NCBI GenBank assembly: GCA_944321955.1
Contig: CALUNG010000009.1
Location: 597 to 64,596 of the forward strand
DNA from: an uncultured Alistipes sp.
GTDB lineage: Bacteria > Bacteroidota > Bacteroidia > Bacteroidales > Rikenellaceae
Length of the DNA stretch: 64,000 bases
Direction: 5' to 3'
Part shown: one piece after another, positions 34,199-39,240 of the stretch
Numbering within the stretch: position 1 is the stretch's first letter
Layout of the letters: each line of letters opens with the position of its first letter
Made by a program: the position numbers and the translations under genes
The notes under the pieces: model-generated
Told to the model about the DNA's origin: nothing
Databases searched by the model: none
The model's input: only the letters and a program-made list of their open reading frames with translations

Positions 34199-36031
34199 AT
34201 GAGAGTTATGATTGATGTATTTAATAGAATTGTGGCAGCGGGCTGTTATTTGTCTGTTTGTCTGTTGTCGTTGTTCGCCGTATCATGTGCCGAAGACAGG
34301 ACGGATTCCATTACGGGGAACGGCAGTGACGGCTATCTGCAACTTGAGTTTACGCGTGATGTAACACGTACGGATATTGCTGAAGACGGTTCCGGTTCGT
34401 TTACTGCAGGCGATGTCGTAGGTCTTTATGTCGACAACGGCAGCAACGTGCAGTACCGCGAACTTACGTACGACGGTTCCGAGTGGCTGCCGCGACTTGA
34501 ACGCAGTGAGTTCGGATTCGGGGAGCTTGTTCTGTCTGCGCATTATCCTGCTGCCGGTAATTCCGCTGATGCGGCTCCTGAAGCTTATACATGCCGTGTC
34601 GACACCGACCAGTCGGGAGACGGTTTTGCCTCGTCCGACCTTTTGTTTTCCAAGGTCTCGCTCGGTGAAAACGACTATAGGGCCAATTTCCGTTTCACTC
34701 ATCTTATGCATCGTCTGCGGATCTCTATTACAGGCGAAATCGACGGCGTCGAGCTGTCAGTGCGGACGATCGCGGGTGGTTCGGTAAATTTGCTCGAAGG
34801 TTCGGTTGCGGTGTCCATGGAGGAGCCTGTATGGATAACTCCGCGAAAAATATCTGAAGGAAGCTATGAGGCTTTGGTCGTTCCCCAGCCTGTTGCCCCC
34901 TATCGTGAAGGCGACGGGTTGGTTCGTGTAAAATCGACTGAGAAAGAGGTGTCGTTCAATGCTCCGGAATCTACCTCCGAAGGAGAGCCACTGACTGCCT
35001 TTGAGCATGGCAAGCAAACAACGATGAGGTTGTCGATACGTGTCGTTGATCAAGATGTGGCCAATAAAACGCTTTGGGTGCGCGGTGTCAATGCTCCCGC
35101 CTTCCCGGGAGAGGAGAATATCCCGTCGATATCTCCGTCGTATCAGGGTAAATATCCCGAGGGAGAGTGGTTCAGAGCTGATGCTACCGTATACGAAAGC
35201 CAATGTCTTACATGGAAAGAAGGGTGTGGCTGGTACGACTGCAACAAATCTGTAAATTATGACGAAAATGACAAAAATCTATGTTGGGCGGCTTCGGCTT
35301 CGAATCTGTTGCTGTGGTGGCTTAACAATAACAAGGCGTATATTGAAGCCTATGATGAAGAGTACGGGTCGAGTGTAAGTTCTACTGTGGTTGAGGGTTT
35401 GGCTTTTGATCGTCCATCGTATGAATTCCTGCCCTTATATTATAACGGAACGTTGAACCGGGCTCCTGTTTTCGAGTTTTTCAAAAGTAATTTTCCGGAT
35501 AGGGGAAGTTGGAATTCTGCCGGTGTCAACTGGTTCATTGCGGGTAATACCAAGAATCTTCTTACTCCTAACATCAAGGGATTCCCGGGGTTCTTCTTCA
35601 ATGTATTTGATAAAACGGATATTATTGCTAAGGATTCGCCTCGTCAACCGAACTGTGAAACATTCAACGAGTTTGTTATAGACGCACTGTTGAATGGAAA
35701 GGCTTTAGGATTTAATGTGTTTGATATTGCAGGCCCGTCTACTGGCAACCATGCCATGGTATTTTGGGGCGCAGAGTTCGATGAATCCGGTCGTGTATCG
35801 CATGTGTATTATTGTGATAACAATATGGCTGATCAAGATGCTAATGGAGCAATGATGCGTCGTAGTCAGGTTGTATATATTGAGGAGAATGGATACGAAT
35901 ATACATATCTCAAGTCTTTGGACAACAAAGACGGAAATCCTGTCGGTAAATTCATGATTACGTCTTTGTGCTCCGTGGATTTGCGTCGCGATATATGGAA
36001 AAAGAAGTATCCGGCTGTGGTAGCTGAATAA
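34199..36031 (+). CDS. Fimbrillin (type V pilin-like) lipoprotein fused to IdeS/Mac-1 family cysteine endopeptidase
   Basis: Lipobox FAVSC, VTR processing-like site, EDGSGSF..GD, DLLF, FTHLMHRL (fimbrillin). C-terminal GWYDCNK...LCWAASASNLLLWW, GNHAMVFWGAEFD, VYYCD align with IdeS catalytic motifs. Start uncertain (34175/34199/34208). Confidence 0.85.
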   Translation: MRVMIDVFNRIVAAGCYLSVCLLSLFAVSCAEDRTDSITGNGSDGYLQLEFTRDVTRTDIAEDGSGSFTAGDVVGLYVDNGSNVQYRELTYDGSEWLPRLERSEFGFGELVLSAHYPAAGNSADAAPEAYTCRVDTDQSGDGFASSDLLFSKVSLGENDYRANFRFTHLMHRLRISITGEIDGVELSVRTIAGGSVNLLEGSVAVSMEEPVWITPRKISEGSYEALVVPQPVAPYREGDGLVRVKSTEKEVSFNAPESTSEGEPLTAFEHGKQTTMRLSIRVVDQDVANKTLWVRGVNAPAFPGEENIPSISPSYQGKYPEGEWFRADATVYESQCLTWKEGCGWYDCNKSVNYDENDKNLCWAASASNLLLWWLNNNKAYIEAYDEEYGSSVSSTVVEGLAFDRPSYEFLPLYYNGTLNRAPVFEFFKSNFPDRGSWNSAGVNWFIAGNTKNLLTPNIKGFPGFFFNVFDKTDIIAKDSPRQPNCETFNEFVIDALLNGKALGFNVFDIAGPSTGNHAMVFWGAEFDESGRVSHVYYCDNNMADQDANGAMMRRSQVVYIEENGYEYTYLKSLDNKDGNPVGKFMITSLCSVDLRRDIWKKKYPAVVAE

Positions 36032-36058
36032 AATTGTAAAATTTATAAAAATAAGACT

Positions 36059-36916
36059 ATGAACAGAAAATTTTTTGTGATATTGGCCATTGCGGCAGTT
36101 GCAGGAATTGTCGGTTGCAACAAGAATGACAACAAGACAACCGTTTCCGATGGGAAAATAAAGATTGTAACCGGAATTGATCCTATTGAGACGCGGGCTC
36201 CGCAACTCGGCGAGGACGGCAGCGGGTCGTTTGCCGATGGAGACGCATTCACCCTTGTGGCATTCGGGACGACCGGCAAATCGGCAGAGTTCGGTTATAG
36301 CGTAGGTTATACCGATCTGTATTGGAATGATGTGGAGAAGGTTGCGGCCGATGGCAAGGTCTCGTTTGCGGCCTGCTATTCTGTTCAGGAGATTTCCAAC
36401 GGTTTGTTTTCCTTTGACCTGTCGACAGCCAAATACAAGGATCTGCTGTTGGCTTCGGTAAAAGACGTTGCTGTAGGCTCTTCAGATCCCGTTAAGTTGA
36501 AGTTCGGTCATGCTATGCACCGTCTTGTGATCAAGTATTCGATTGATGCCTCATCGACTGTTTCTGCTGCGGATATCGTGACCGTATGCAATGCCAAATC
36601 GTCGTGTAAGGTGGATATGTTTGCAGGCAAACTTGACAGTAGCGAATCTTCGAAGTCGCAGTTCGAGGCTGAAGGCGGGAACGTGTCGTTTATGCTTGTT
36701 CCGCAGGCTTGTTCCGATGTAGAGATCTCGGTAAAGGCCGGTGAGCTGTCGACGACATTCACTGTCGACGAGAAAGCCGATGCCTGCGACATGCTCGAGG
36801 GCGGCAAACAGCTTACGTTGAGCCTTACGGTCAAGGCCGACCGTATCGAGATCGGCGATATCGTTATCGACGGGTGGGGTGATCAGGGTACCGTCGAAGG
36901 GGAGATAATAATGTAG
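36059..36916 (+). CDS. Fimbrillin-family lipoprotein (type V pilin-like)
   Basis: Lipobox IVGC, IETR site, GEDGSGSFADGD, DLLLA, FGHAMHRL, C-terminal strand IVIDGWGDQGTVEGEIIM. Confidence 0.85.
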   Translation: MNRKFFVILAIAAVAGIVGCNKNDNKTTVSDGKIKIVTGIDPIETRAPQLGEDGSGSFADGDAFTLVAFGTTGKSAEFGYSVGYTDLYWNDVEKVAADGKVSFAACYSVQEISNGLFSFDLSTAKYKDLLLASVKDVAVGSSDPVKLKFGHAMHRLVIKYSIDASSTVSAADIVTVCNAKSSCKVDMFAGKLDSSESSKSQFEAEGGNVSFMLVPQACSDVEISVKAGELSTTFTVDEKADACDMLEGGKQLTLSLTVKADRIEIGDIVIDGWGDQGTVEGEIIM

Positions 36917-39068: not shown

Positions 39069-39081
39069 GGGTGTCGCACGT

Positions 39082-39240
39082 TTAATATGTTCCGTAATCC
39101 TTTTCTTCGAGGTCGTCGACAACCCCCGTGTTGCTCACTGCAAATCCCGACTCGATCTCGATGTCGAATCGTGTGATTGCCGGTGCGGAGTATGCGTTCG
39201 ACATGCTCCGTGCCATTTTTGTCTCAGAGATTCTTTTCAT
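39082..39240 (-). CDS. Small 52-aa peptide upstream of pilin gene (below ORF-track cutoff)
   Basis: MKRISETKMARSMSNAYSAPAITRFDIEIESGFAVSNTGVVDDLEEKDYGTY*; lies between the promoter and the pilin ATG (13-nt gap), with an A/T-rich initiation region. Confidence 0.7.
   Translation of the reverse strand: MKRISETKMARSMSNAYSAPAITRFDIEIESGFAVSNTGVVDDLEEKDYGTY

Follow-up and report, generated by a model that had tools for sequence, protein, structure and literature searches.

A two-gene cassette from an uncultured Alistipes encodes an IdeS/Mac-1-type protease fused to a type V pilin-like module and a short partner pilin, a candidate enzyme-tipped mini-pilus

The stretch of DNA analysed here, referred to as the window, comprises 64,000 nucleotides (nt) of an uncultured Alistipes sp. 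(GCA_944321955.1, contig CALUNG010000009.1, forward-strand positions 597-64,596). It contains three lipoprotein genes, here called P1, P2 and P3, each with a lipobox, a first strand and a T-R-(T/A) site (R57, R46 and R51, respectively), as had been pointed out in an earlier note made from the letters of the sequence. The main subject of this study is the pair P1-P2, in which a pilin-like lipoprotein carrying a predicted protease of the IdeS/Mac-1 family is followed by a short pilin with a free C-terminal tail. Positions 34129-36966 have the layout of a two-gene operon, in which one candidate promoter box precedes P1, 27 nt separate the two genes and a hairpin terminator follows P2. The features of this pair are as follows (aa, amino acids).

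34129-34136, plus strand: candidate Bacteroidota -7 promoter box TACTTTTG (consensus TAnnTTTG), 63 nt 5' of the P1 ATG
34199-36031, plus strand: P1, a lipoprotein of 610 aa in which a type V pilin-like module is joined to an IdeS/Mac-1 (C66) cysteine protease
34199-34288, plus strand: P1 signal peptide and lipobox ...FAVSC30, with Cys30 nearly invariant in the family
34289-35083, plus strand: P1 pilin-like module, approximately residues 31-295, a paralogue of the whole of P2 (Mfa_like_1; hhalign)
34331-34372, plus strand: first (anchor) strand GYLQLEF of P1 and the loop with Arg57 (VTR/T), the predicted maturation site
35084-36028, plus strand: P1 Mac-1/IdeS protease domain (Pfam PF09028)
35282-35284, 35750-35752 and 35822-35824, plus strand: predicted catalytic codons of P1, Cys362, His518 and Asn542, respectively
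36059-36916, plus strand: P2, a 285-aa lipoprotein with a predicted complete two-domain type V pilin fold, the dedicated partner of P1
36155-36208, plus strand: P2 anchor strand and flexible Arg46 loop (Arg46 codon 36194-36196)
36875-36913, plus strand: extreme C-terminal tail of P2, WGDQGTVEGEIIM, a candidate donor strand, conserved and unpacked in the monomer model
36929-36966, no strand assigned: hairpin with 19-nt arms flanked by A and T runs, a putative intrinsic terminator acting in both directions, between the converging units of P2 and P3

Pfam recognises two domains in P1: the fimbrillin-like family Mfa_like_1 on residues 74-290 (57 bits) and Mac-1 (PF09028) on residues 297-566 (79.4 bits compared to a cut-off of 20.3), the latter being the sole copy of this domain in the genome. 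The N-terminal half of P1 is read as a complete pilin module, in which two beta-sandwich domains come after the lipidated anchor strand and the Arg loop. The IdeS/Mac-1 family corresponds to the MEROPS peptidase family C66. Searched against the PDB by sequence, P1 matched T-Mac/dentipain (9mdo, 2.6e-13), IdeS (2au1, 9e-13) and an IgM protease. In the alignment with 9mdo the catalytic triad of T-Mac, C412/H561/N585, falls onto C362/H518/N542 of P1; these three residues are invariant in 32 P1 homologues, of which no fewer than 90 % also have D540. As the triad both aligns and is invariant, the P1 protease is predicted to be active. At the level of domain prediction P1 is thus the protease-bearing subunit that had been proposed earlier, and it belongs to the IdeS/Mac-1 family. 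By analogy with the characterised members of the family, its substrates could be immunoglobulins or complement components.

P2 begins 27 nt after the stop codon of P1, in the same reading frame, and its only Pfam match is Mfa_like_1 (76 bits). Its lipobox IVGC20 is followed by the strand IKIVTGI and the site ETR46A; the lipobox Cys is invariant or nearly so across the P1, P2 and P3 families. The suggestion that P1 and P2 are paralogues holds: EDGSGSF, DLL and HxMHRL are common to both, BLASTP aligns them with 22 % identity (E 1e-5), and hhalign relates the N-terminal module of P1 to P2 with 99.8 % probability (E 1.4e-29, 253 columns). An AlphaFold2 (AF2) monomer model of P2, built from a 41-sequence alignment, had a mean predicted local distance difference test (pLDDT) score of 86 and a predicted template modelling (pTM) score of 0.79. 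The best PDB matches of this model in Foldseek were 4k4k, 3ufi, 3sy6, 4dgu, the FimA prepilins 6jzk/6jzj, Mfa3, Mfa2 and Mfa4, with E values down to 4e-14. Models lacking the transthyretin-like pilin fold had been named beforehand as grounds for giving up the pilus hypothesis; the model of P2 matches solved type V pilins. Single-sequence searches of the PDB with P2 or P3 gave no match, and the P2 family profile reached 3ufi (5e-10) and 4k4k (2.5e-9) by sequence.

Two parts of P2 resemble the working parts of a type V pilin. At the N-terminus, strand 34-40 is modelled with confidence (pLDDT approximately 93) and the loop of residues 44-50, which contains R46, is unpacked with pLDDT below 50. 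Arg or Lys stands at this site in 53 of 57 P2 homologues (93 %), within two columns of the corresponding site in 31 of 32 P1 homologues, and at the P3 site in 27 of 30 P3 homologues, where R51 likewise lies in a low-confidence loop of the model. In these alignments the conservation of Arg/Lys in all three families is well beyond chance. At the other end, the last 11 residues of P2 are unpacked in the AF2 model, and the tail, with the consensus I.GWG(D/N)QG(T/S)(V/I)(E/D)GEI(I/V)(M/L) ending at the free carboxyl terminus, is one of the three most strongly conserved segments in the P2 family. A (D/G/N)W followed by an ending of 10-13 residues is also found in the pilins of an operon with DUF3575, DUF5119 and Mfa_like_1 genes on contig C19 of the same genome, and in the solved pilins 3ufi and 4k4k 13-14 residues remain after the aligned W. 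The C-termini of P1 and P3 are globular domains and that of P2 is an unpacked tail. As far as the model can tell, the 285-aa protein has a free C-terminal tail, a candidate for the free strand that the earlier note had expected of a stalk or adaptor pilin.

The fusion of a pilin module to Mac-1 is not confined to this genome. At least 169 clusters at 90 % identity contain both Pfam domains, under the database names 'IdeS/Mac family cysteine endopeptidase' (NCBI) and 'fimbrillin family protein' (UniRef), and an exhaustive search at E<=1e-30 gave 82 clusters at 50 % identity, mostly of 550-620 aa and colinear with P1. Among species-representative genomes there were 182 P1 relatives, in Millionella, Alistipes, Tidjanibacter, Rikenella, Phocaeicola, Bacteroides, Mediterranea, Prevotella, Odoribacter, Falsiporphyromonas and a Weeksellaceae bacterium. 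The loci of 80 of these 182 were fetched; in 75 the protein has the pilin module and in five it is a Barnesiella-type Mac-1 protein without it.

A P2 homologue adjoins P1 in 58 of the 80 loci, nearly always as the next gene downstream (median gap 27 nt); in two loci it precedes P1. At the loci of the five Mac-1 proteins without a pilin module, which may come from one lineage, P2 was adjacent in none. Approached from the side of P2, all four homologues followed (34-40 % identity) lie directly downstream of a pilin-Mac-1 gene. The two proteins have also diverged together, the P1 and P2 distance matrices giving a Mantel r of 0.79 over 45 pairs, a value not reached in any of 999 permutations. The genes flanking the pair vary from genome to genome. 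Judged from this comparative evidence, P1-P2 is a dedicated, self-contained module across the Bacteroidales.

Such strict pairing and co-divergence would also be expected if P2 were a dedicated regulator of the protease, i.e. an inhibitor, a chaperone or a pro-domain acting in trans, with its tail in the protease cleft; proteases of the families C10 and C47 are often co-encoded with inhibitors, and a conserved disordered tail suggests a binding motif. However, P2 is a full pilin paralogue of the N-terminal module of P1, it has a lipobox and an Arg site of its own, and its (D/G/N)W-plus-tail ending has the form seen in the pilins of the pilus-type operon of the same genome and in solved pilins. 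The Mac-1 proteins without a pilin module also do without P2 (none of five, possibly from one lineage). We consider a regulatory role of this kind very improbable.

Some further observations were made on the P1 family. Two metagenome contigs have transposase, integrase or conjugation genes beside the cassette, namely a DDE transposase, an rve integrase, an AIPR gene and a TraG-type coupling-protein gene (L106:5901-8888; L107:1-74 and 8929-9113), and in some genomes mobile elements may therefore carry the P1-P2 cassette. In approximately 19 of the 80 species-representative loci, frameshifts or in-frame TAA, TAG or TGA codons interrupt the pilin-Mac-1 gene (L014, L018, L021, L029, L030, L037, L039, L054-L057, L064, L068, L071, L072, L075, L078 and L084). 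These include loci of the cultured isolates B. cellulolyticus Sanger_22, P. faecicola AGMB03916, P. fibrisolvens Sanger_21 and B. mediterraneensis An793. The pattern suggests that function is often lost, and some of the cases may be metagenome assembly errors. Recoding of stop codons in the homologues was rejected, since the stops are a mixture of TAA, TAG and TGA.

P3 converges on the P1-P2 pair from the opposite strand. It was previously thought to reach position 39240, but its start is at 39068, and 39082-39240 is a separate, conserved open reading frame (ORF). The features of this side of the region are as follows, the domain borders given for P3 being approximate.

36990-39068, minus strand: P3, a 692-aa lipoprotein, a separate unit
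38139-39005, minus strand: P3 pilin-like module (Arg51 codon 38916-38918)
approximately 37713-38129, minus strand: beta-trefoil-like region of P3
37425-37583, minus strand: BACON domain of P3
36993-37403, minus strand: variable C-terminal beta-sandwich of P3
39082-39240, minus strand: small conserved ORF, 52 aa here, 13 nt upstream of P3
39309-39316, minus strand: candidate -7 promoter box TACCTTTG for the transcript of the small ORF and P3

The N-terminus of P3 follows the same plan, with lipobox FAGC21, strand KITVSANA and then DTR51T. BLASTP detected no similarity between P3 and P2; with hhalign the P3 family profile aligned to the P2 family over the first approximately 300 residues with 95.4 % probability (E 1.7e-8). 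Mfa_like_1 matches three of 30 P3 homologues, and P3 itself at a borderline 26.4 bits in a six-frame search of the genome. The AF2 model of P3 (pLDDT 82.6) matches the pilin-like BF1858 (3t2l) with a template modelling (TM) score of 0.58. A type V pilin-like module in all three proteins, as first suggested, is therefore seen in P1 and P2 by Pfam, in P2 by fold and in the N-terminus of P3 by profile and fold. The sole Pfam match of P3 is BACON, at 26.4-27.6 bits compared to a cut-off of 25, and 28 of 30 homologues match this model. The P3 model also matches the beta-trefoil lectin SeviL (TM 0.71) and carbohydrate-binding modules, so that the lectin-bearing subunit proposed earlier is recovered at the level of domain prediction, as a lectin-like beta-trefoil region together with BACON. 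The last approximately 130 residues of P3 are swapped among close homologues, many matches covering 79 % of the query and having unrelated C-termini; the head looks modular and polymorphic. A paralogue of P3 with the same N-terminus (...NTPETATRTVIGD...) was found in the same genome at C6:105260-106207 on the plus strand, its long frame broken by one TGA, and is a probable pseudogene.

The small ORF, of 44-62 aa, precedes every P3 homologue examined, i.e. those at 70 %, 57 % and 36 % identity and the P3-like gene of the same genus. Its members share the motif ...ESGFA.S..G..DDL.E.DYG.Y before the stop codon, and no signal peptide or Pfam match was found in it.

The three genes had been described as one island, and it could be argued that they form a single pilus system in which P2 serves as shared stalk or adaptor for either a protease tip (P1) or a lectin tip (P3). 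Pilin module and R loop are common to the three proteins, P3 resembles P1 in having no free donor tail and ends in a beta-sandwich domain, and the genes are adjacent in this species and its near relatives. Apart from this species, the trio was found in metagenome contigs only, at 94 % and approximately 70 % identity. However, a P3 homologue was present in none of the 80 P1 loci of other species. The P3 homologues at 57 % and 36 % identity have unrelated neighbourhoods without P1-P2, and in the closest genome of the same genus (G007, fabD 88 % identical) the small ORF and a P3-like gene stand beside fabD, again without P1-P2. In the window the two sides lie on opposite strands with separate promoter-like boxes. 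Since P1-P2 and P3 are distributed separately, the region consists of two units instead of one island; P3 with its small ORF is an independent unit built to the design of a pilin module plus a functional head, and a shared three-subunit pilus seems to us improbable.

On one side the region borders on glpA/glpB; its other neighbours are fabD and the genes of a ROK regulator and an acetyltransferase. Its G+C content, said earlier to be low, is indeed 0.475 compared to 0.552 for the genome, in the lowest 1.8 % of 5-kb windows, and no mobility genes occur within approximately 8 kb, also in agreement with the initial description. The perfect bidirectional terminator noticed between the converging units was likewise recovered at 36929-36966: its 19-nt arms are 100 % complementary, the two strands fold with -30.4 and -28.7 kcal/mol (z -8.7 and -10.4, respectively), and no shuffled sequence folded equally well. 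TAnnTTTG has 39 matches in the window compared to 19 expected, and none within the 27-nt P1-P2 spacer. A search for flanking direct repeats or insertion scars around the region gave short chance matches only. In eight genomes of the same genus glpA was never within approximately 11 kb of fabD, and because this junction is not conserved in the genus no comparison with an empty site was possible. A P1 orthologue was absent from all 18 genomes of same-genus species. The patchy distribution, together with the low G+C content, marks the region as accessory DNA.

The assembly of type V pili provides the frame in which P1 and P2 can be read. It is known that it requires a lipidated anchor strand, a cleavable loop and a C-terminal donor strand that is essential to the last residue, and that donor strands are present on stalk pilins and missing from tip pilins, while anchor pilins have no Arg site (PMC13655056). 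The type V pili of Porphyromonas gingivalis (FimA-E, Mfa1-5) share with P1-P2 the lipoprotein precursors, the anchor strand followed by an Arg-site loop, the two-domain transthyretin-like pilin fold (matches 6jzk, 5nf4, 5nfi and 5dhm) and a C-terminal tail, in P2 a candidate donor strand, on the stalk-type subunit and not on the tip (PMC13655056). Unlike them, P1-P2 consists of two genes only, in the order tip then partner, the locus has neither an anchor without an Arg site nor a stalk of the size of FimA or Mfa1, a gingipain was not detected in a search whose control was also silent, and the tip carries a protease in place of an adhesive domain. The solved proteins closest to P2 by profile and fold (TM approximately 0.55-0.70) are BACOVA_04980 (3UFI) and BACUNI_00621 (4K4K), which are of similar size and also have 13-14 residues after a conserved ...(I/V)EDW, with an identity to P2 of only approximately 13-15 %.

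The plan of P1 itself has a parallel in the Bacteroides tip pilins BfrT/BthT/BunT, which are diversified by diversity-generating retroelements (DGR), and in BovFim1C (4EPS); in these a signal peptide, a lipobox, a cleavable Arg and a pilin N-terminal domain are followed by a functional head at the C-terminus. BfrT, a tip protein of this make-up from B. fragilis, a species without gingipains, has been shown to be cleaved at R43 and exposed on the surface (bioRxiv 10.1101/2024.11.15.621889). Unlike P1, the BfrT-type head has a C-type-lectin fold, and the genes end operons with anchor and stalk pilins. The enzymatic half of P1 is comparable to IdeS/Mac-1 of Streptococcus pyogenes and to T-Mac (TDE0362, dentipain) of Treponema denticola, with the Mac-1 domain and its conserved Cys/His/Asn(Asp) triad, C412/H561/N585 of T-Mac corresponding to C94/H262/D284 of IdeS (PMC11833123). 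T-Mac, too, is a proteolytically processed lipoprotein, whose N-terminal beta-sandwich part is not catalytic (PMC11833123). In P1, however, this part is a type V pilin module and not Big domains, and a dedicated partner pilin is co-encoded. Members of the Mac-1 family differ in substrate, which may be IgG, IgM or complement C3/C4, and T-Mac cleaves complement factors and not IgG (PMC11833123); the family name therefore does not predict the substrate.

With a protease-pilin fusion and a dedicated partner pilin, strand exchange as in pili probably keeps the enzyme attached to the cell surface. For strand exchange, Arg cleavage, polymerisation, stoichiometry, attachment at the base and substrate, we infer the following course. 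P1 and P2 would be exported, lipidated and flipped to the cell surface, where an Arg/Lys-specific surface protease would cut the loop behind the first strand of each. The C-terminal strand of P2 would then enter the groove of P1 and displace its lipidated anchor strand. P1 could not itself donate a strand, because the protease occupies its C-terminus, and would be the distal tip subunit, borne by one or several P2 subunits. The basal P2 would be held by its own anchor strand or by an anchor pilin encoded elsewhere, and the P1 protease would act on host or neighbour proteins away from the membrane. We place an evenly balanced confidence in the reading of P1-P2 as a minimal tether resembling a pilus, with the protease as its tip.

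Several observations weigh against this tether. Seventeen of the 75 pilin-bearing P1 loci have no adjacent P2. The P1-P2 locus encodes no anchor pilin lacking the Arg site, as both proteins keep R/K, and for the same reason P2 is not a classical anchor; the Mfa2-like matches in the genome are weak and lie on other contigs. A search of the genome found no FimA-family stalk, and one for the C25 gingipain (PF01364) gave no match, its control being equally silent. The lipoprotein export signal of P2 (CNKNDN) is weak. Finally, the genome has 14 Mfa_like_1 matches, many of them inside frames of 580-1365 aa, and the module may thus often be a plain surface spacer.

As to the unpaired loci, a full-length P2 is encoded elsewhere in four of six genomes in which the sampled P1 locus lacked it, in one case beside a second P1 copy and in two unlinked. 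Phocaeicola plebeius DSM 17135 (L110) and Phocaeicola sp. HCN-6420 (L111) have a lone full-length P2 with no P1 within 3-4 kb, and both genomes have a pilin-Mac-1 gene at a different locus. Since P1 and P2 occur unlinked in the same genomes, the partnership survives unlinking. The operon on contig C19 (C19:16637-24167, minus strand; L109) is of the type V pilus type, with DUF3575, DUF5119, three Mfa_like_1 genes and a gene for a 596-aa lipoprotein, and an R site and a C-terminus of the (D/N)W-plus-tail form are present in several of its proteins. Pilin machinery of the kind that P1-P2 would need is thus encoded in this genome.

Alternatively, the proteins could be ordinary, mutually independent surface lipoproteins, in which the pilin module would be a rigid spacer that lifts the protease of P1 or the lectin-like domains of P3 off the membrane, P2 would be a paralogue expressed together with P1 but serving another purpose, e.g. 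adhesion, and no strand exchange would take place. Most of the 14 Mfa_like_1 matches are indeed in large multi-domain frames outside pilus-type operons, neither an anchor gene in the locus nor a FimA family member was found, the gingipain search with its silent control was empty, and P3 homologues occur without a neighbouring pilin gene. In the DGR preprint, moreover, the related BovT/BfiT proteins were not incorporated into pili. A spacer would, however, leave unexplained the conservation of the R/K loop (approximately 90 % or more in all three families), a P2 tail that is conserved yet unpacked, and both the restriction of the P2 family to the company of pilin-Mac-1 genes and its co-divergence with them. 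We regard the spacer explanation as unlikely, though as a serious possibility.

Put together, the pilus-type tether leads to a wider proposal, which we advance tentatively and with somewhat less than even confidence: a dedicated type V mini-pilus, whose IdeS-family enzyme tip leaves its lipid anchor for a partner pilin through strand exchange, would occur sporadically, and sometimes near mobile-element genes, in gut Rikenellaceae, Bacteroidaceae, Prevotella and relatives, and might cut host immunoglobulin or complement at a distance from the cell surface.

Each part of the system is of a kind already known and automatically annotated, i.e. the type V pilin superfamily, a C66-type protease and a BACON lipoprotein. 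In a literature search we found no description of their combination, a two-gene cassette in which the tip-type pilin is an enzyme and has a partner pilin dedicated to it. The known function of type V pili is adhesion; a protease tip with its partner pilin would, if true, extend them to the display of enzymes, and no earlier type V pilus would have been armed with a protease. With only two genes, the system could moreover serve as a very small model in which to dissect type V strand exchange in organisms other than Porphyromonas, and it is readily testable because several P1-P2 carriers are cultured isolates, among them Millionella massiliensis Marseille-P3215, Rikenella microfusus DSM 15922 and Bacteroides ilei Marseille-P3208. 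As relatives of IdeS cut IgG, IgM or complement, the cassette provides a concrete and testable candidate for how commensal bacteria of the gut may handle the immune proteins of their host.

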